From Octopus vulgaris (Eukaryota), in contig OX597823.1 of the NCBI GenBank assembly GCA_951406725.2, positions 76,694,001 through 76,758,000 on the forward strand: a stretch of 64,000 nt of DNA. The letters run 5' to 3'. The position numbers were made by a program, and so were the translations under genes. A model generated the notes under the pieces. It saw only the letters and a list, made by a program, of their open reading frames with translations. It did not search any database and was not told the DNA's origin. Positions 29,333-64,000 of the stretch are shown here, piece by piece (the first letter of the stretch is position 1; the number at the start of each line of letters is the position of its first letter).

Positions 29333-29885
29333 AAGACCCGGCAGGACAAGTGAGACCATAACCCGTGGCCTCTACACGGGATGTAGCCAGTCCACTTATG
29401 CATACCTTTCCTTCTTGGGACCCAAAACTCTGCTTGTGAACACCTGTTGAGGCAAGTGAGAATCGAAATTGATCAACATCAATGGAAATTGCAGGAAGGA
29501 CCAGGTGCTGGTGGCACGTAAGAGAACCATCTGAACGTGGCCGTTGCCAGTGTCGCCCTGACTGGCCTCGTGCCGGTGGCATGTAAAAGCACCATCTGTT
29601 CGTGGCCGTTGCCAACGTCGCCTAGCCCCCGTGCTGGTGGCACGTAAAAAGCACCATCCAATTGTGGCCGTTTGCCAGACTCGTCTGGCACCTGTGCCGG
29701 TGGCACGTAAAAAGCACCCACTACACTCATAGAGTGGTTGGCGTTAGGAAGGGCATCCAGCCGTAGAAACATTGCTAGATCAGACTGGGCCTGGTGCAGC
29801 CTTCTGGCTTCCCAGACCCCAGTTGAATCGTCCAACTCATGCTAGCATGGAAAGTGGACGCTAAACGATGATGATGATGATGATA
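29333..29885 (+). mobile_element. RTE 3' end (family A), inverted relative to its neighbour
   Basis: Begins at the ORF end aagacccggcaggacaagtga and ends in (GAT)n. Confidence 0.8.
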
Positions 29886-49778: not shown

Positions 49779-50114
49779 TAAATATTTATGTGTGTATATG
49801 TACATACGTATGTATCAATCTATCTATATATCTATGAATGTTTGTATGTATGTATGTATGTATCTATCTATCTATCTGTCTATCTATCAATCTATATGTC
49901 TGTCTATCCATCAATCTATCTCTCTCCCTATATATATATTTCTCTCAATTTTTTTCCTCTCTTCATCCATTTCCTTTCTTCATTATTTTCTGTAGAAAAG
50001 TATAGGCTTGAAATGTCAAAGTCTTTTTTATTTTTCCTGACCGTCAAACTGATTCACCTTGTTTGTTATTCCCTCACCTGTCTCAGTCTTTTGGTTTTTG
50101 TACAATTTTGAATC

Positions 50115-50147
<33 letters not shown>

Positions 50148-50150
50148 CAT

Positions 50151-50545
50151 AGGCATAGAAGTAGCTTGCTTACGAACCACATGGTTCTGGGTTCAGTCCC
50201 ACTGCGTAGCACTTTGGGCAAATGTCTTCTACTATAGCCTCAGGCTGACCAAAGCCTTGTGGGTGGATTTGATAGATGGAAACTGAAAGAAGCCCATCGT
50301 ATATATGTTTATATATAAGTATGTGTGTGTATATGTTTGTGTGTCTGTGTTCGTCCCCACAACATCACTTGACAACCAATGCTGGGCTGTTTACGTTTCT
50401 GTTACTTAGCAGTTTGGTTAAAGAAACCTATAGAATAAGTACTAGGCTTAAAAAGAATAAGTGCTGAGGTCGATTTGCTCGAATAAAGGCAGTACTCCAG
50501 CATGGCCACAGTCAAATGACTGAAACAAGTAAAAGAGTAAAAAAG
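50151..50545 (+). mobile_element. SINE family B
   Basis: Match to 4474-4876. Confidence 0.85.
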
Positions 50546-51557
50546 TATATATATATATATTAGACAAACACACACATACACATACACACATATATGTACA
50601 TTTACCTTCATATACACATATATATTTAAATATCTATATGCATATATGTACACATGCGCATATACTAACACAGAGGTGTTTTTGTACAGTATATAGCTAT
50701 ACAAACATGTACACGCACGCACACACACATCGAGTGATATTCCTAGACCTTCTTAGGTATTAATCTAGACTGCACTATCTGAGTTTTGTTTGCTTTGTAG
50801 TGTCTTTCTATTGATAAAGCTTTCATAACTAATCTTTTTTATGTTTTAGGGAATTCTATACATACAAATGCATGTGTTATCAACAAATATTTGTTCTATC
50901 TAGTTCTTTTAGTGCTGTGTAAAGCAATGCATTGCGATATATCTTCTTTTTATTACAAGTACATTGTCAGCTGGTAAGATAAATGCACGCTACGTACAAA
51001 ACACAACCAATGTAAATAGTTAGAGCTATAAAGTTTAACTTTCATGTTTGTATTCAAAATTGTAAATTATATTAGTCATATGAAGTTTGTTCAGCTGCTT
51101 GGTAGCTTGTTGTTTGGTTTTTGAAGAGGATATCTTTCATTTAAGCGTTTTTTTGTATTATATTATTAATGCTAGTTTATCGTTGTAATGTATGTTGTGT
51201 AGCGTATTCATTTGCTCAATGGCCAATATGTATTTGCTCATTGCAATACACTTTATGTCTGCTTTGTTGTTTTCACTGTTCATTGCGTCTGGTGTATTTA
51301 TTGGGTGGAATTTCTTTAAGTGTATATCCGATATTGATTGTCTTGGTATTGTTCTATTCATTCCATGTTGTAATACTTTAATTGTGGAAGAGAAGAGTCT
51401 AAAGGTTTGTTTTTTTTTTTTTAAGTAGGGATTTTACAACTTTTATTTTATCCTGAGGTGGATATTCATTATTTCCTGGCATGTGAATAATCATTTGTTT
51501 GGGGGCTTTAGTGAGAACTAATGCAAACTATATCGATTTCACCTTCTTTTCACAAAG

Positions 51558-51592
51558 GATCAGTGAAAATCATGACCTCAACGTACCTTGAG
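51558..51592 (+). CDS. Candidate 35-nt host exon (GSVKIMTSTYLE)
   Basis: Branch actaat, pyrimidine tract tttcaccttcttttc, aag acceptor, GAG|gttaag donor, in about 1.3 kb with no recognisable repeats. Confidence 0.3.
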
Positions 51593-52115
51593 GTTAAGCT
51601 GTATAAATATGTTTGTACATAGAGGTAAACACACAATGCCTGTCTGTTATATTTCCTTTATATTTACATCTAAAAACAGAGTTGCTGTGTTGCATTAATT
51701 TTTGCTTAATCCTGCAGAATTTAAACCAGCCATAGCAAAACCCAAATAATTTACCTGTTTTATGATGAAACAGGTCATGTCTAGTCTTACATCTATCCTG
51801 CAGTGTTATTCTAAAAATGCGTAATAATACCATCAAAATTTCAAAGCTATAAGGTAATGCATGATTAGTCCAAAACAGTGTGAATAAATAATTGTTGCAT
51901 TCGACTGAATGATCTTCTGAATGCTAAATGAAAGGCCTGCGTAGGTTAGGCATTAATATTTGGAATAGCTCTAGTAAAAGTCACTTATTGCAGTCTCTTT
52001 GGCCAAGAGCTTTAAGATGACAATAACTGACCTGTTACATAAAGGTGTCACGATATCTTGAATGTAAATGGAACCCTGAGATGCAGAAATTTTGATTACA
52101 ATAAGAGTTTGATAA

Positions 52116-52632
52116 TTAGGATGAGGAAAAATTTCTTGCATGGTGTTAAAAGAATTCTTTGTTATATATTTTTGTGGTGTGTGCATTCATTCAGTTCGTG
52201 TCATGTTCAAAGTACTCAAAACTTGTTTGTCAAAAGTTTACTTTGTTTCAGCAAGATAACGCAAAGCTACATACCACAAGAAAGACTAGCAACAAGACTG
52301 AAGAACTGGAAGGTGTGGAAGTTCTACCACATCCAGCCTGTAGTCCAGGCATTGCTCCATCTGACTATGGTCTGTTTTGATCAATGCAGCACCTTATGAA
52401 AGGTCACCAGTTTGAGTCATTTGATGAAGTTGAAAAAGCCTGTCAAGGATTTTTCAATTCAAAGCCAAGGGATTGGTACTTTGACCGAATCCAAAAGCTT
52501 GCAGATCATTGGCAGAAGGTCACAGAACATAATGGTCTTTATTTTGAAGAATAGTTGTTGTTGTTTTTGAATAAATTCTTGCATAAAAAATCATTATTTT
52601 AACATGGCACACAAACTTTTTCTTCAACTTAG
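52116..52632 (+). mobile_element. Internally deleted mariner (DD34D-type)
   Basis: QQDNAKLH...LPHPACSPGIAPSDYGLF*SMQH...WQKVTEHNGLYFEE*; diverged TIRs. Confidence 0.85.
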
Positions 52633-52772
52633 TATTATAATATGTATCTTTCAGTCACTGTGTGTTTGTCTAACTCTCTTTTTGTCTTTTATTCTCCACC
52701 CTTTCTCTTTATGTATGTGTATATAGCTATAGATAGACAGACAGATAAATGTGTGTGTGTGTGTGTATGTGC

Positions 52773-52805
<33 letters not shown>

Positions 52806-53156
52806 CAAGAAATCAAAAAAGGAAAATACGCACACTTACATGGTTATAATATAATTTTTAATATATCGACCGGTTTCGCAATCGCTATGCATGATATAAT
52901 GTTTAATTTATATGAATATATATTTTTTCTTAAGAAGAAACATATATATATATATACATAGACATATATAAATAAATAAATAAATGATATAAACACACAC
53001 ATACACACACACACACATGCTGAGTAAATCAAAGGAATTTTCAAGGAATTCAAATTATATTCCTCATAACAAGACAAAAAAACATTATTAATGGCAATGA
53101 GTGAATTTATAGCAGAAATTGAAAGAAGCTTTCATATATATATTCATACATACATT

Positions 53157-53302
53157 TGCCCGTAACTTAGTGGTTCAGCAAAAGAGACCAATAGAATATG
53201 TACTAGGCTTACAAAGAATGAGTCCAGGCATCGATTTGTTCAAATAAAAGCAGTGCTCCAGCATGGCCACAGTCAAATGACTGAAACAAACAAAAGAGTA
53301 AA
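53157..53302 (+). mobile_element. SINE family B, 3' fragment
   Basis: ccgtaacttag...gtcaaatgactgaaac. Confidence 0.8.
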
Positions 53303-53486
53303 ATTGTAAAGGATTCATGTGGAAGGAATATGTAGGAGAGGAAGTGATGGGGAAGAAGTAGGGACGATAGGTGTGAAGATTAGGAATCTCATGAAGGAGA
53401 TGATGAGAGAAGAGAACAAGTGGTGTGAAGTTGTGCTGGGGAAAACTCATCCGAATCATACAAACATAGAAAAATGGATGTAAAAT

Positions 53487-53825
53487 GATGATGGTGGTGG
53501 TGGTGGTGATGGTGATAGTGGTGGTGGCTGTGGTGGTAGTGGTGGTGGCTGTGGTGGTAGTGGTGGTGGTGGTGGCTGCGGCAGAGGTGGTGGTAGTGAT
53601 TGTAGTGGTGGTGGTGGTAGTGGTGGTAGTGGTAGTGGTGGTGGTGGTGATGACGATGGTGATGCTAGTGGTGGTGGTGGTGGTGGTGATGTTGATGATG
53701 CTGGGGGGGTGGTGGTAGAGGTGATGATGATGGTGGTGGTGGTGGTGGTGCTGCTGCTGCTGCTGCTGGTTGTGGTGTGATGGTGATGCTGATGGTGGTG
53801 GTGATTGTGATGATGATGATGATAA
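53487..53825 (+). repeat. (GGT/GAT)n microsatellite
   Basis: Seen directly. Confidence 0.95.
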
Positions 53826-55700
53826 TAGTACACATGCACATGTGTGCGCATGTGAATGTGTCTATGCATGAATGTGTATGTGTGACTGTGCATGTGAATG
53901 CAGGCGTATGTTTGCATGTGAAATACACATCAAATCACGTACTAAATTAAAGTGGAGTTAGATCAGTTGAACAAACAACATAATTCTCCATTGTCAAAAA
54001 AAAAAGAAAAAACAAAGGAAAATGCATCACCACTACCACCACCACCACCACCATAACCACCACCACTACCACCACCACCACCACTACCATCATCATCATC
54101 ATCATCATCATCATCATATCCACACATGTATGTGTATGGCATGTTTGTAAGTGCATACACATACACATACATATACACATTCAGAAATACACACACACAC
54201 GTGTGCACATGCAAAACCTCGTACATTCACATTCATTCACGCACAATATTTTCATTTATTTAATGCATTTTACTCATGAGTTTTCACCTTTCAAAATTCA
54301 ATACAGTCATTAGTTGCTGATTGATATTTCTATAACTGAAAATTTCATCTATTATTTGAACATTTCATCCAAAACTAAAACATTTATTGTACCAAAATTG
54401 CACCCAATTAGAGCATTTCTCTATTATAATTTTACTTATTCACTCACCTTCAACACTAATTTGAATTTACTGAAACATGTTTTAATTACATATCTGCATG
54501 TATGTGTATTTGTTAGCGTGTTCGTAAGAGTATTTTAGTGTGTGTGTGCATTTGTGTTTGTTTGTTTGCATTATGCAGTTTCTGTACAAGAGGTTGTGTG
54601 ACCTAAGTGAAATGCACCTGTGTGCACATATGCATTCGCATGTTAGTATGTGTTTGCTTTATTGAAAGCAGTATGACCTGAGAGCAATGTGACTGTTTGG
54701 ATCTATATGCATGCATGTGTGTGAGTAGGTGCATGTGTGCGAGTATGTGCACAGTGTATGTTAGTGCATGTCTGATTTTCTGTATGTAGGTGTGTGTATT
54801 TGTGCATGTATGATTTTGTGTATGTGTGTCTGTGTGTGTTTGTGCATCTCTATGTATTTACTAATGTTTTAGAAGCAGTATGATCTGAGCAAAGTAATTA
54901 CAATTTTGTTCTTTATTCAATTATATTTTCAATCATAAATCCAGTATTCTGTTAGATTTCTCGCTATAATGTCGCAATGCAAATACCTATTTTCTTTTTG
55001 TGCAGCAGAGCTGAGAAAATGAATCGCATGTTCTAGCAACAATAATATTTTGCTAAGAGCATTCATTTAATATATTACAGTGATTGTGACATTAACTTTA
55101 CCTAATTAGGCTTAACCTGGTGTTCATTTCAGACATAAAACAGGTTCAAGTTAAGGTTATGATTAAGGCAAGATTTGAACTCACCGTGTAATAAGAAGTT
55201 ACCGAGTACCTCAACCTAGTTTATCCAATGCTCTACTAATTTCAGCAACTAACAGCTATATCCATGTTTGTAATAATTAAAGCTAAGGAGATTAAATAAA
55301 ACTGCTTGACCTGCTAGAAATACAAGCTATTAGGTTGTCGCACGTGAAATGTCATGTTTGAAAAGTAATAATAAAATGTTTCAGAAGTGTTGAAGAACTG
55401 ATTCATATCAAACTAGCTGCTGCTAGCTACCTAGAACCCACAAAAGTAAAAAAGAGAGATAGCGACAATCAGAAAAATGGAAAATGTCCCTTACATTTGA
55501 AAACTATGGAAATATTTTTTAAAAAAGCATTTCATTTAATTTTTCCGTAATTTAATTGTTTTTCATGCTTTACTCTAAGCTGAAGAAGTCACAAAGACTA
55601 AAACCTGTACTAAAATGTTCTTCATAATAAAATTATTTTAGCATTTTCTACCTTGTCTTATTTTCCTTATACATATCAACTCATGTGTTCCTTTTCAACC

Positions 55701-55867
<167 letters not shown>

Positions 55868-57034
55868 TATGTATACAACTATATGAAACTTCTACCAGTT
55901 TGGCATGATACATACTAACATATATACATCCATTACTTGCATACACACATACTTCTATAAATACACACTCATATAGATGCATAAATTCTATGCATCCACT
56001 CATATTACTAAATCTGATACCTTAGCTTCACAATCTCGTTCATTATTTAGTATACCTAAGATTTATATTTTCCATATCTACTTAATCTTAAAAGCATATC
56101 TTATAAACCATTTTTTATTTTTTACTTTCAATCTTAACTTCATCTTTTCAGCAAGGATATATGTTCAGCAGAAAGTAATTGCATTTTACACAAGTTGAGC
56201 CACTACGCATCGTCTTAGAAACAAGGTTTTTATTACCAGTAAGCTCTCAGCATTATTTGATCATATTCATTGTATACATTCCACCAATCTCCAAACTTTC
56301 TTCTTAGGGATCTTGTCTACACTCTCTCTGCTTACTAGAAACTGTTGCCAAATATCCTGCAGAATGACATGCTCCTGTCTTAAATCTGGCGAGAACACAT
56401 TGCATAAAGTAGTCGTAGAAATACAAAATGGCAAGATGGCTATGGTTGAAATGTCAGTGAACTGTGAATATAAGTCTTCTGGATCAGAGGCTGACATGGC
56501 ATGCACAAGACCAACATCTATGGTTTTATTCTAATGTTTCTAAAAATTTTCATGCTGTTTTTTATGATAAGCTTTTATTAAAGAGTCCTAGTGCATAACC
56601 CAACCCCACCCTTACACAATCCAACCTCACCCTCCCTATCCATCCCACCCACCCCACCCCATCCCTTAAACCCACTTCCATATACACCACTCTACCCCAA
56701 CCCTCAGCCTAATCCACACCCCACCCTTGCTTTCGTCTCTCTTGCCTCCCCCACATCCCAACACTACCACACCACACACCATCACTCAACACAACACCAC
56801 ATCACATCACATCACAATGCACACACTAGCACTGACCACTTCCCAGCACCCACACCATCAGCCACACACCTACACATGCACACACGCACATGTCAAGGTC
56901 ATCAGCCCCATTCCACAAGCATTTACATGCTCTCTTACATGCATACACACCTTCGTTTTGCGATCACCAATACTTTATTATCTCCCCTTCTTCCTAGCTC
57001 TCCTGTATGACCACTCTGTCCCGTATTTGCCATA

Positions 57035-57240
57035 ATAGATAGCTAACCACTACACATTCTTTATTTTCTCTCTTTGCTTCTTTCTGTGTTCCTTTCTGTG
57101 GAAGTGCATAAGCTCGAAACATTAAGGACTTTTCGTAAGCTCGAAACCTTAAAGACCTTTTCACTTCCCGAGCATTAAACTAATACATCTGTTTGTTGTC
57201 TACATCACCTATCTTCGTCTTTTGTTTTGTTTTTTTTTGT
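57035..57240 (+). mobile_element. Decayed PLE pseudo-LTR with HHR-like motif and partial duplication
   Basis: cttt-ctgtgga-agtgc-ataa-gctc-gaaacatt-aagg, then a repeated taagctcgaaac. Confidence 0.45.
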
Positions 57241-57324
57241 GAAATTGGAAAATTTGTGAAATGCTGATATATATTGTCACAACATCTATTTGAGGTAAGC
57301 AATAAGCGTCACAATGCATGACAT

Positions 57325-57485
57325 CATATCAATACTCACAAATGTTCAAAATGTCTTCCATGCTCTTTGTGACAGCATCTTAATCGAGAAATCCAAGCTC
57401 ATGTAGCATTTTGAAGTGTAACTTGAGGGATGTCATACCAAGCTTTTATCAAGCAAGTTTTCAATTCATCAAGGACAGTTAGATA
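57325..57485 (-). mobile_element. Tc1/mariner-superfamily transposase C-terminal relic
   Basis: LDELKTCLIKAWYDIPQVTLQNAT*AWISRLRCCHKEHGRHFEHL. Confidence 0.6.
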
Positions 57486-58348
57486 GCATTGATATTTCTG
57501 ATCTGTGTTCCAATCCTGTCACAGTCATATCTATCTTCACTTTTACCAATGTCTATAAAATAATTATGTCTCAATTAACTTGCATTCATACAATTACCGT
57601 ACACCTCCCTCAAAATGTTCGTCTTCTGCCTGTGATTAAAATAATTTGTAATCTATTGAAATACTTATTATAATAATGCATCAACTGTAGTTTTGAAGAC
57701 AAAAAGCAAGATCTAAAATGTAAGTGGGCAGAAAAACTTCATAAACTTTACCATTAAGCTTTACAAAAATCCCTTTAGGGAGATTCCATGACAACTTTTC
57801 CAACGCAGCTAAAAAACAGCCCCTCAGTAAATTTACATAAATTTAACATGAGTGTAACCTGCTCTAAGGTTTGAATTTTAGAATAGAATTCCTTATATTG
57901 AAAATGAGAATGCATGGCTCCTGTCAGATGAATGCATTAATTATGTCAGCTAACTTTCTACCTAACATTTTTGTAAGCAAAGCTGACTAAGATATTCCAA
58001 CATCAAGGAGAACAGCAGTAACATTCATTTAATATAAACACCGAACTCATATATATTTATAAATAGAACAAATTTGTCACCAATAGAGGTAGATTTTGTT
58101 TTTTTTTACCAAACTTTCCATTTTAACATGTTACTTGGTTGCAAATCATCTGTTTTCTATTATTCTTGCACTAAGTTCTTTGACAATATTTTCTATTACA
58201 CAAGCTATCTAGATAAAAGAATCCATATATTACTTTGATACGTATATCAATACATTAATTATTTATATATTGTATCACACAGACATAGAATATATTATAA
58301 GAATATATGAGCATATAGCTTAGACACACAATATACAGCTCAAATATA

Positions 58349-58392
<44 letters not shown>

Positions 58393-58394
<2 letters not shown>

Positions 58395-58579
58395 TCATCA
58401 TCATCATCATCGTTTAGCGTCCGCTTTCCATGCTAGCATGGGTTGGACGGGTCAACTGGGGTCTGTGAAGCTGGAAGGCTTCGTCAGGCCCAGTCAGATC
58501 TGGCAGTGTTTCTACGGCTGGATGCCCTTCCTAATGCCAACCACTCCGTGAGTGTAGTGGGTGTTTTTTACGTGCCACC

Positions 58580-58583
<4 letters not shown>
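58393..58583 (-). mobile_element. RTE 3' UTR repeat (family A) between (TA)n tracts
   Basis: Family A blocks. Confidence 0.8.
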
Positions 58584-58618
<35 letters not shown>

Positions 58619-58625
<7 letters not shown>

Positions 58626-60430
58626 ATGATGCTCTGTTTGTTATCCCTAGTAATAATAAATCTGTTATAGAAAGGATTAGAAAGAAAATTAATAAGTTCT
58701 TTAAGGATTTCAACCTCAGTATAACGTATGAACCGGGCACTAAAATAGTTAACTTCCTAGATATTACGCTAGACCTTAACTCCAAGCTGCATTACCCATT
58801 TAGAAAGGAAGGCGAAATCACGAATTACGTAAATAAATTATCAAATCATCCCCCAAATATAATTGAATCTTTAGTAAGAAATATTTCATTAAGAATTTCA
58901 AAATTATCATCCAATAAGGATATATTTAACTCCCATTCTGAGCATTATAATGCGGCGTTAACTAAGGCTGGATACAACCAAAAGATTACATTCGTTGATA
59001 AGGAGAACTCACGTATTCCTAATAAGGAAGTTATCAGTAATCACGTAAGCAGCAATACAGACCAAGCCCGAAATAAAAGTAGAATTAAATTAACGGTAAA
59101 CGCTAATCTAACGTACAGGCCCAACAATTCAAATAGAAACATTGACCAGAACATAGGTAACTCGGATAATATCAAAGTAGATAAACCAAAGATGCACACA
59201 AATAAAAATAAAAATAATGGTAATAAATACAATAGCTCCGGTGAGATGAATAGTAATAATTCTACGAACCCTAAATTTAATAAAAAAGATATAATATGGC
59301 TGAATATTCCTTTCAACTGGGCGATACAATCGGATATACAGAACAAATTCAAAGTAATTCTGGAAAAAAATTTCCCAATCTCTCATAGATATCATAGAAT
59401 TATTTCTAGGAAAACAGTTAGGATTTCTTATTCAACCCTCCCAAATATGTCCACTTTAATAGCTAAGATTAATAATAACAACATTAAACTAGCCAGGAAA
59501 AATAGAAATAAAAATAATAATATCAGCATGAATACCAATAGCAATTATAATAATACTACCAACAATAGAAACAGCAATAGTAACTATCAAAACATGGGTG
59601 AAATTAGTTACCACAGAATGACTAATAACATTAACATTAATAGTAATAATAACAATACCGATATTAATAGAAGTAATAATGTTAATAATAGAAATAATAG
59701 AAATAAGGCTAATGGAGAAAATAAGGAGAATGAAAATATCAGTGATATCTATAACAACAATATGCAGTCGGATAAAAAGACTAACAATAATAGTAACATT
59801 ACCAATAATATAAGAAATCATGGTAGGACTTTAGACCTAAAAGATGAAACAGAAGGATCAATAAATAATAGCAATACTTTAGATATCAGCACCAACTATA
59901 GAAATATTAATAACAATAAGGACAATTATACTCATGATAATCAAAATAATAGGAACCTAAGACATCTACCCAAGAATAATCCAAAACCTGAAGTTGTTCC
60001 TCCTGTGTGTAAGTGTAGAATAAAATCAAAATGCCCGGCACCTGGTCTATGCGGGGAAAATAATGTAATCTATAAATGTACCATATCCACGGAGAATAAC
60101 AAATATCTTTACATTGGATGTACAATTAATTTTCTAGCCAGAGTTAGAAATCACATCTCGTCTTTTAAATTATGTCATAAAGCTGGTACCACCACACTTT
60201 CAAACAAAATCTGGGAACTCAAAAATAATAATAATAATTATAGCCTTAATTGGGAAATAGTTAGGAGAGCAATTCCGTATAAAAATAGCAGGGTTGGTTG
60301 CCAACTATGCTCCATGGAGACGTATGAAATTCTAAAGCATAGAAAACATAGAAACTTATTGAATAACCATATCGAACTAGGTCAAGTTTGTGTCCACGCT
60401 AAATTGAAGACTTTAAAATATTTTAAATGA
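58619..60430 (+). CDS. PLE polyprotein, 5'-partial: RT palm/thumb, Asn-rich linkers, CxCx5C, GIY-YIG endonuclease (603 aa, no stops)
   Basis: I translated 58619-59191 by hand; it is open and in frame with ORF 59192-60430. Motifs: YRDDAL, VNFLDITLDL, YVNKLSNHPP, YNAALTKAGY, IIWLNIPF, ISYSTLPNM, CKCRIKSKCP..C, VIY...YIG, R.RNH..SF, LSNKIWELK, CQLC..E, CVH. Confidence 0.9.
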
Positions 60431-61472
60431 TTAGAATATTCGTAACTAGATAGATAGATAGATATAACTTGATTTTTACTAGTATAGCACTGCTTTAAGT
60501 AGATAACTAAGAGTTCTCACACTACAGTTATCTTTTTCCTTATATCTGCATCAGTTTTTTGAGAACAGGGAAATGAATAGTACTTATACGCTGCTTAATT
60601 GAGGCTTTATTTAATTTCAAACTCATAATTTTAAATTTTTAAATCTTAATTTTAAATCTTAATTTTAATTTTTAATTTTAATTCTTAACTTAATCTAATT
60701 TAAGTAGCATAACTTTAATAAAATAAAAAGAGTTACTAAAGCCCCATAATTCTATTTCAAAATTAAATAAATAAGGCTACTCCCTCGGTGATAATATGAT
60801 TATCTTCATTATGATAGACAATTCCCTAACACCTTGTAAATGATCTTCTAAGATTTGACCTGTAGTCCGTCAATGTATGAATAATAACAGCAACTCCTTA
60901 AGACAGTAAAATGAATAAATTAAATAAATAAATTTTATTGACTTTTTGATAAGATTATACTTAGATTTTCCTAATGTATTTTCTTTTGATTTTAGCCTTT
61001 GACCCCTAAACCCCTAAACCCCTGACCGTGTTATCTCTTTAGATCCTCTTTAAATTCATAGCTGCTTTCGACAGCAATAAATTAGCTGTTTTACTGGTCA
61101 AAGAATAATATTCTCCTCTAGTTCCTAGATGCCTGTAAATTAAAACCAGACTTGCCGTCTACTAATTCTTCTGTATAACTAGAACCCTCTTTTTTCTTTT
61201 TCTTTTTTTCCCTTCTTTCCCTATTTCTTTCTCTTTTCTCTTTTTTCTTTTTCTTCTTCTTATTCTCTTTTTCTTTTTTTCTTTTTCCTTTTCTCTTCTC
61301 TTCTAGCCCCCCCCTTTTGCTCCCTCCCCCTTTATTTTCTCTCTTTCCTTCTCTTTCCTTCCCTTTTCTGTTCTTTGCCTCTCTAGAAAGCCCTTCAGCC
61401 TTTAAAAGTTAAATAGCTACAGTCTCTTGAAAATAGCAGTAATGTGATTAATGTGGCAAATACCTAATCATA

Positions 61473-61765
61473 TAGCAAGAATTGATACCCACCTCATTGT
61501 GTTCAACCATTGATAAATTTATCTCCTGTGAATATGAAATTCCTCTTCATTTCTCTGAAATTTACATCTACACCATTGGAAATTGTGCATCTATACAAAG
61601 GATTAATTCACCCTCTCGGTAATGCTAATAAGCAGGAATTGAAACCCACCTCGTTGTGATTAGCAATGGATAAATTTGTCTTCTGTGAGTATGTAATCCC
61701 TCCTCATATCTCTGGAAATTCATATGTACACTATGGATTAAGTCACCTTCTCTGTGATGCTATTA
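61473..61765 (+). repeat. Diverged direct duplication (about 135-160 bp) in the PLE 3' region
   Basis: agcaagaattgatacccacctc... at 61473 versus agcaggaattgaaacccacctc... at 61631. Confidence 0.8.
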
Positions 61766-61912
61766 AAACATTTTTAAAATTCTGTGATAAGACTGTACAT
61801 CATCTTTAAAGAACTTTAATGAACTTTGGAAATCTGTTTATGTTACTTAATTATCTACATTACTTCATGAGTATAGCCTCAACCACTAGGATGTCTAGAG
61901 AACTCACATGTA

Positions 61913-62003
61913 TTTTAGCTGATGAGTACGGGACACGTTTATATGCTGCAATTTTTGCAACTTTTAATAAAGCCTGTCCTTGTATGAAACGATTGTACTA
62001 AAA
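61913..62003 (+). ncRNA. Type I hammerhead ribozyme with extended stem II
   Basis: ttttag-CTGATGA-gtacgggaca...tgtccttgtat-GAAA-c(gatt)g-TA-ctaaaa; 6-bp stem I, predicted cleavage after A61997 (GUA). Confidence 0.85.
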
Positions 62004-62150
62004 ACCTATCCATTCTTGTTGCTTCTTTCTTGCTTATAATCACCCCACATTACTGTATTGTTAAAACCGTATAGTTTGTTTTGGTGCATCTAAGTTAGGT
62101 ACCATATTCAAGTAAATTCATTTAAATTAACTTGAATCTTTATTGCTTTT

Positions 62151-62186
<36 letters not shown>

Positions 62187-62189
<3 letters not shown>

Positions 62190-64000
62190 GTGTCGGTGGC
62201 ACATAAAGACACCATCCGAAGACCCGGCGACGTAGTCAGTCCACCTGTGCATACCTTCCCTCTTATGACACTTGTGAAGACCTGTTGAGGCAAGTGTGTG
62301 ACACTTGTGAAGACCTGTTGAGGCAGAGGCAAGTGTGTGACACTTGTGGAGACCTGTTGAGGCAAGTGTGTGACCCTTGTGAAGACCTGTTGAGGCAAGT
62401 GAAAATCAAAAATCAAATCAAACCAAATCAAAATAGATGAACATCAATGGAATTTGTATCTTTGTGGTTCCAGTACCGGTGGCACACAAGAAAACCATCC
62501 GAACGTGGCCGTAGCCAGTACCGCATCGACTGGCCTCCGTGCTGTGGGCACAACAAACACCATCTGATCGTGGCCGTTCGCCAGCCTCATCTGGCACCTG
62601 TGTCGGTGGCACATAAAAACACCATCCGAAGACCCGGCGACGTAGTCAGTCCACCTGTGCATACCTCCCCTCTTATGACACTTGTGAAGACCTGTTGAGG
62701 CAAGTGTGTGACACTTGTGAAGACCTGTTGAGGCAGAGGCAAGTGTGTGACACTTTGTGAAGACCTGTTGAGGCAGAGGCAAGTGTGTGACACTTGTGGA
62801 GACGTGTTGAGGCAAGTGTGTGACACTTGTGAAGACCTGTTGAGGCAAGTGAAAATCAAACCAAACTTGTGAAGACCTGTTGAGGCAAGTGAAAATCAAA
62901 CCAAATCAAAATAGATGAACATCAATGGAATTTGTATCTTTGTGGTTCCAGTACCGGTGGCACACAAGAAAACCATCCGATCGTGGCCGTTCGCCAGCCT
63001 CATCTGGCACCTGTGTCGGTGGCACATAAAAACACCATCCGAAGACCCGGCGACGTAGTCAGTCCACCTGTGCATACCTTCCTACTTATGACACTTGTGA
63101 AGACCTGTTGAGGCAAGTGAAAATCAAAATCAAAATCAAAATCAAATCAAATCAAATCAAACCAAATCAAAATAGATGAACATCAATGGAATTTGTATCT
63201 TTGTGGTACCACTACCGGTGGCACACAAGAAAACCATCCGAACGTGGCCGTAGCCAGTACCGCATTGACTGGCCTCTGTGATGTGGGCACATAACAAACA
63301 CCATCCGATCGTGGCCGTCCGCCAGCCTCATCTGGCACCTGTGTCGGTGGCACATAAAAACACCAACCGAAGACCCGGCAAGACTAGTCAGGCCATAACC
63401 CATGGCCCCTACTTGGGACGTAGTCAGTCCACCTGTGCATACCTTCCTTCCTTCTTGTGACACTTGTGAAGACCTGTTGAGGCAAGTGAAAATCAAATCA
63501 AATCAAATCAAAATAGATGAACATCAATGGAATTTGTATCTTGTGGTACCAGTGCCGGTGGCACACAAGAAAACCATCCGAACGTGGCCGTAGCCAGTAC
63601 CGCATCGACTGGCCTCCGTGCTGTGGGCATGCAACAAACACCATCCGATCGTGGCCGTTCGCCAGCCTCATCTGGCACCTGTGTCGGTGGCACATAAAAA
63701 CACCATCCGAAGACCCGGCAAGACTAGTCAGGCCATAACCCGTGGCCCCTACCTGGGACGTAGTCAGTCCACCTGTGCATACCTTCCTTCTTGTGACACT
63801 TGTGAAGACCTGTTGAGGCAAGTGAAAATCAAATCAAATCAAAACAAATCAAAATAGATGAACATCAATGGAATTTGTATCTTTGTGGTACCAGTGCCGG
63901 TGGCACACAAGAAAATCATCCGAACGTGGCCGTAGCCAGTACCGCATAGACTGGCCTCCGTGCTTGGGGACGTAACAAACACCATCCGATCGTGGCCGTC
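62187..64000 (+). repeat. Tandem array (about 260-480-bp units) derived from the RTE 3' UTR; runs off the window edge
   Basis: aaaatagatgaacatcaatggaatttg recurs at about 62430, 62908, 63168, 63510 and 63851; internal about 33-bp subrepeat gacacttgtgaagacctgttgaggcaagtgtgt. Confidence 0.9.

Follow-up and report, generated by a model that had tools for sequence, protein, structure and literature searches.

A young octopus Penelope-like element family, assigned to the Hydra clade, with two alternative 3′ end sites at (TA)n targets

Introduction

Within the Penelope-like elements (PLEs), the Hydra clade is defined, in the available part of its description, by an RWK motif, a DKT motif, a CxCX5C motif, loss of CCHH, CxxC and CxH motifs, a canonical hammerhead ribozyme (HHR) and (TA)n targets (PMC8557442). 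The same source, Craig et al, names inverted PLE structures with a tail on one side as an open question (PMC8557442). Where this one-sided tail is mentioned for other PLEs in the accessible sections of two papers, it is called “often” present or “optional” and measures 30–40 nt (PMC8557442, PMC3846280). In vitro work on the Poseidon element of Anolis, as far as the consulted part of the paper reports, found two internal starts of reverse transcription that match the tail, with both target strands nicked and extended and HHR cleavage not needed (PMC11167929). In the 2026 paper on Octopus vulgaris repeats, the word Hydra is absent from the main text in the version available, and the supplement may hold the family treated here (PMC13282606).

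Here we describe a PLE copy in the window, the whole 64,000-nt stretch of O. vulgaris DNA that was analyzed, together with its family in the same genome. The value of the case is carried by a rule that governs the 3′ ends of the family and not by the window locus itself.

Results

Structure of the window copy

A sequence-only reading of the window had described a PLE with an intact frame for reverse transcriptase (RT) and GIY-YIG endonuclease (EN), followed by non-coding sequence and flanked by (TA)n. Most of its description of the layout was accurate (Table 1). The frame is indeed open for 603 aa and ends in a GIY-YIG-type EN with its VIY...YIG core at 60065–60121; the CxCx5C linker motif (CKCRIKSKC) is present; the non-coding region, put at about 1.7 kb, measures 1722 nt; and (TA)n tracts adjoin both ends. 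The last base is 62152 rather than 62151.

Table 1. Features of the window copy and its flanks, in window positions.
Feature	Position	Strand	Remarks
(TA)n target tract, 5′ flank	58584..58622		last 6 nt TATATA (58617–58622) match the element too
5′-truncated ORF, family residues 355–957: YRDD, RT motifs 6–7, thumb, inserts, EN	58619..60430	+	
First Asn-rich insert, family residues 486–570, 25% N	59012..59266	+	low pLDDT in model
Second Asn-rich insert, family residues 665–814, 35% N	59549..59998	+	low pLDDT in model
CxCx5C linker motif CKCRIKSKC	60008..60034	+	
GIY-YIG-type endonuclease: VIY...YIG, R, CxxC, E, N, CxH; no CCHH	60065..60427	+	
3′ non-coding region	60431..62152	+	3′ part is the pLTR in tandem copies
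Type I hammerhead ribozyme, long stem II with inner hairpin	61913..62003	+	predicted cut after 61997
End site A	62033..62038	+	stop point of 59/129 family ends; window copy reads through
“Tail” of 114 nt between end sites A and B	62039..62152	+	predicted stem-loops
End site B, the 3′ end of the window copy	62152..62152	+	used by 69/129 family ends
(TA)17 target tract, 3′ flank	62153..62186		

The claim of an intact element did not hold. In the full copy L035, which differs from the window ORF by 8 aa, YRDD stands at residue 355 of a 957-aa ORF; the window copy, which begins there, therefore lacks the first 354 of the 957 family residues, and with them RWK, DKT and RT motifs 1–4. Considered as an autonomous PLE, it has neither a complete RT (motifs 1–7) nor a start codon. 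Judged by its sequence, it is a dead fragment that cannot encode a working RT. In stretches around family copies the element continues for another 1120 nt upstream of the window break, giving a unit of 4650 nt, and in full units the sequence continues for 55 nt beyond end site B to an ATG. The family sequence at the break is CTATATAGGG, and the Y codon of YRDD and the first base of the R codon fall within the 6-nt TATATA that element and flank have in common.

This last feature would also be expected if the copy had once been longer or two-armed and had lost its 5′ part through later deletion or recombination between TATATA and the (TA)n tract, and (TA)n tracts are unstable. However, the window copy differs by 0.5% from its nearest relative, which leaves little time for such a loss, and among 15 loci examined six other single-armed copies (L033, L050, L052, L068, L077, and L111) likewise join (TA)n at their 5′ ends. 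Moreover, no further piece of the family was found within the window, and no remnant lies upstream of the copy. We regard later loss as quite unlikely. The window copy is instead likely to be a single-armed, 5′-truncated insertion of a young Hydra-clade PLE, made by target-primed reverse transcription from an internal site.

Several repeats lie in or near the copy. An internal direct repeat of about 104 nt with about 80% identity (61475–61734, in the 3′ non-coding region) is common to family copies, and a short CCCTAAA-like repeat in the same region (61004–61021) possibly arose by chance. Directly beyond the 3′ TA tract, a tandem array of 340–413-nt units (approximate lengths; 62186–64000) has very high read depth and is probably SINE-derived. 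An interspersed repeat of about 190 nt (58394–58583) lies between two (TA)n tracts and is 90% complementary to 29696–29884; we take it to resemble an octopus SINE.

Protein features and phylogenetic position

Full copies of the family encode a single ORF of 957 aa (L035) in which the RT is followed by a C-terminal EN. RWK is present as RRIRWKTY, and DKG is replaced by DKT, as PADKTG. Inspection by eye showed that the EN contains both CQLC (CxxC) and CVH (CxH) but lacks CCHH, with one Cys only between VIY and YIG, in contrast to the CxxC of the canonical proteins P0044 and P0063. The canonical HHR core and the (TA)n bias are found as well. None of the marks of Neptune and Nematis (DKG, a CX2-5CxxC linker, CCHH) occurs in the family protein P0002, whereas among the canonical proteins checked the linker was seen in 12/12 and DKG in 11/12; an N-terminal EN, the mark of Naiad, is also absent. 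The unit of 4650 nt exceeds the size of less than 3 kb that is typical of the Hydra clade, although this size is not a defining feature.

A tree of 38 rows, built from a quick search without published Hydra, Poseidon or Naiad references and with groups labeled by motif, separated 25 RWK/DKT-type from 13 DKG-type proteins with an SH-aLRT of 100, and placed the family and two sister families on a long branch. The earlier assignment to the Hydra clade is thus supported at the sequence level: full copies carry all the defining motifs, and their RT stands apart from the 13 DKG-type PLEs in this quick tree, which has no Poseidon row.

Pfam yielded no genuine match to the window protein, to the full-length protein or to three homologues, and a PDB sequence search with P0002 gave 0 matches; a profile search of PDB gave one weak match, to a retron RT (E 0.02). 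In a structure model with a mean pLDDT of 75, the two Asn-rich inserts are disordered, and TERT is the structure in PDB that the model matches best (E 5.7e-9). The EN call is based on the motifs together with an Atlas lead scored at 0.94, 33% of whose members carry PF01541. The sole named homologue is an Octopus sinensis protein with 70% identity over 42% of the query region. An ankyrin repeat gene model of O. sinensis (P0017) opens with roughly 200 aa that belong to a related Hydra ORF and appears to be either a chimeric model or an exonised element.

The hammerhead ribozyme

The intact HHR announced by the sequence-only reading is borne out as a type I ribozyme with its core elements CTGATGA at 61919 and GAAAC at 61986. 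A search for the Rfam hammerhead found no match at E≤1 in 50000–64000, and folding of the single sequence was not significant (z-scores −0.42 to −0.76), so that the ribozyme is supported by covariation, examined in 11 related sequences of the same genome. In these the core is invariant and 91.8% of cells pair, compared with only 30–41% in slid controls; the shuffle control is inflated by the relatedness of the sequences. Double changes affect 10 pairs, of which 8 lie within the HHR and include 3/5 in stem I and 4/10 in stem II. Self-cleavage is predicted.

Size and age of the family

A search with the first 378 nt of the window copy returned at least 303 candidate ORF pieces, the best 40 of which, window copy included, are 98–100% identical. 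Searches with the 3′ end gave 1969 and 1461 candidates, figures that are not copy numbers. The copies analyzed are the 40 best-scoring ones per search, a sample that leans to young copies spanning the queries; within it, the 37 copies of more than 3 kb show 0.5–4.7% substitutions relative to the window copy. The frame is open from RDD to the stop in 28/38 sampled copies, so the open frame of the window copy reflects the youth of the family and is not special to this locus. Nine distinct ORFs above 900 aa were seen, 7 from the family and 2 from a sister family, and synonymous outnumber non-synonymous codon changes among full ORFs (27:13, 28:15, and 27:12). Both the family and the left flank of the window copy are present in all four sequencing runs examined, whose contigs are interrupted at the repeats to either side of the insertion.

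On these sequence comparisons the family is young and high-copy, in line with the recent activity that had been proposed. The accompanying suggestion of a poorly described family stands in part: the family differs from the published octopus one, but that one, Hydra-1_Obim, is already in print. Full-length copies elsewhere would supply protein to truncated ones such as the window copy.

Open ORFs also occur in at least four other families of Hydra type in this genome (L163, L181, L261, and L281; 842, 1090, 727, and 717 aa from stop to stop). The 727-aa family includes many near-identical copies, and by eye the 717-aa family is far closer to Hydra-1_Obim. A canonical DKG-type PLE family (L037:892–2586) is also very young, with 15071 candidates, of which the 114 scored are 99–100% identical.

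Two end sites and their targets

We collected 129 distinct 3′ ends of family copies. Counted from the predicted HHR cut, 59 terminate at site A (+36 to +41), 69 at site B (+155), and 1 at +16, in counts to which one of the two 3′-end search sets contributed copies selected for presence of the B end. Both sites thus lie 3′ of the HHR cut, about 114 nt apart. Arms with less than 90% identity to the reference were excluded from the end counts, as were arms whose end lay less than 12 nt beyond the HHR cut or closer than 25 nt to the edge of a locus. Repeated records of the same genomic place were also removed, together with arms that read through (18, 4, and 15 in three families). No 5′ end at the HHR cut was found among the copies, a result that is biased by the queries. 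The proposed (TA)n bias extends beyond the window: (TA)4 occurs within 12 nt of 125/129 ends, compared with 5.2% of window positions, and the remaining 4 ends adjoin degenerate TA repeats or N. The L163-family B ends L173 and L178, however, adjoin (CT)n before (TA)n, and L224 adjoins (GATA)n, so that targets are not strictly (TA)n.

The two sites are not combined freely in head-to-head insertions. An A arm is paired with a B arm in 46/47 of them, the exception pairing B with the end at +16, whereas independent choice of site by the arms would be expected to give about half AB. Two sister families follow the same rule (10/11 and 13/15; 69/73 over three families), and a fourth family also has two ends, at +37 and +108. 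The three AA or BB pairs among the 73 have outer flanks that agree at 94–99.5% over about 400 nt, so that they look like later inverted duplications or assembly artefacts.

Arms of one insertion resemble each other, with a divergence of 1.08% compared with 2.38% between insertions; where the two arms overlap by 100 nt or more, those within an insertion are the closer ones in 38/42 pairs, and the opposite holds in 4/42. This likeness points to one donor or one RNA, to which conversion between inverted arms could add. It would also be expected if a single cDNA folded back or switched template and copied itself into the inverted arm, as has been proposed for the Adineta Penelope from junction palindromes in the part of that study at hand (PMC3846280). 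In at least seven insertions (L032, L037, L039, L053, L056, L058, and L063), however, each arm has sequence that is missing from the other: the long arm ends at A without the tail, and the short arm carries the tail. Neither arm can then be a fold-back copy of the other, barring later deletion of an internal tail from the A arms, and we consider self-priming highly improbable.

A different account starts both arms at one site and has the EN trim the tail from one of them during resolution of an intermediate. This route would likewise produce a strict one-tail rule, site A is TA-like (TTATA) and thus a possible EN substrate, and Craig et al (2021) hold, in the available text, that the tail most likely comes from EN-mediated resolution (PMC8557442). 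The ends themselves fit it less well. A G is carried at 38/59 A ends (window equivalent 62034; for example L032, L033, and L037) but by 0/75 read-through alleles, which suits initiation better than a clean cut; in single-armed copies, A ends are as precise as B ends; and starts matching the tail have been measured for Poseidon in the consulted portion of that work (PMC11167929). Trimming by the EN is accordingly unlikely in our estimate, though with a modest chance of being right. The simplest reading of the end counts is double priming, with one site used per target strand.

Addition of a C without a template, or slippage on CG as synthesis begins, may account for the G at A ends. A target origin, which predicts G(TA)nC flanks, was not supported: AC ends 10/38 of the runs, compared with 64/192 in the window. 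B ends of the family and both ends of the L261 family are mostly G|TATA, with a templated G.

Stem-loops are predicted a few bases 3′ of A and of B. Across the 11 sequences, no variation occurs in helices 5 and 9, and a single double change was seen in each of helices 6 and 7. That these structures position priming at the two sites is a lead only.

Discussion

Proposed insertion mechanism

Because the end sites are both 3′ of the HHR cut while the arms reach beyond it in the 5′ direction, we infer a template that runs unbroken through the HHR site. In the mechanism that we propose, the RT-EN protein would bind such an RNA, whether a tandem transcript left uncleaved or a circular form, and nick both strands of a (TA)n tract. 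Each 3′-OH would then prime a cDNA, aided by short TA-like matches, one at A and one at B, with the stem-loops just 3′ of each site perhaps placing the priming. Both cDNAs would extend upstream through the HHR site, stop at variable points and be joined head to head. Target-site duplications (TSDs) are unreadable inside (TA)n, and the staggered double nick is what we infer. The window copy would represent the B-primed cDNA only; synthesis would have stopped within the GLY-R codons at the internal TATATA, a match that likely also served to join the cDNA to the (TA)n flank.

The strongest form of this model makes double priming obligate: the two nicked strands would always take different sites, every primary two-armed insertion would consist of one A and one B arm, and both cDNAs would come from a single HHR-spanning template. 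We give this form an even chance. If it is true, the octopus lineage, with its 114-nt spacing, full-length ORFs and putatively untemplated G at A, would be a clean test case for the inverted ends of PLEs. The end counts speak for double priming at two sites of the RNA rather than for copying by fold-back, and they define precise positions for mutagenesis. A literature search, limited to the parts of papers that it brought up, found no printed count of a strict one-A-one-B rule. Beyond the mechanism, the family extends the small Hydra clade by a long, Asn-rich, recently amplifying octopus lineage with full-length ORFs.

Comparison with known elements

The comparisons below refer to the accessible parts of the cited descriptions. 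The family resembles the Hydra clade, including Hydra-1_Obim of Octopus bimaculoides, in its single ORF with a C-terminal GIY-YIG, in RWK, DKT, and GLYRDD, in the CxCx5C motif, in CxxC and CxH with no CCHH, in an HHR with a canonical core and in its (TA)n targets (PMC8557442). It differs in size, as its unit of 4650 nt and ORF of 957 aa stand against a general size below 3 kb in the clade and against 2507 bp and 709 aa in Hydra-1_Obim; it contains two Asn-rich inserts, unlike Hydra-1_Obim; and its HHR has a stem II of about 60 nt with an inner hairpin, in contrast to the short stems II given for the HHRs of the clade, and flanks unlike those of Hydra-1_Obim (PMC8557442). Since Hydra-1_Obim is 2507 bp long and has a different HHR, the family studied here is another family, and by sequence comparison it is new and distinct.

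The Penelope families of Adineta vaga share with the octopus family inverted pLTRs that stand head to head, only one of which bears a tail, and in-frame Asn-rich inserts between RT and EN, although their inserts are longer (460–554 aa) (PMC3846280). Their tail of 31 nt is called optional, and their TSDs are readable, unlike those of the octopus family (PMC3846280).

Poseidon PAc of Anolis carolinensis belongs to another clade and has a tail of 30–40 nt, compared with about 114 nt in the octopus family (PMC11167929); in two other families of the octopus genome the tail is about 73 nt. The PAc starts are rich in AC and lack homology to the target, whereas the end sites of the octopus family are TA-like (PMC11167929). 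The accessible PAc description contains no tally of arms by start site (PMC11167929). In both systems, however, two internal sites, measured as RT starts in PAc and probable RT starts in the octopus family, define the tail, and the HHR lies upstream of them; in PAc both target strands are cut and extended, as we propose for the octopus family (PMC11167929).
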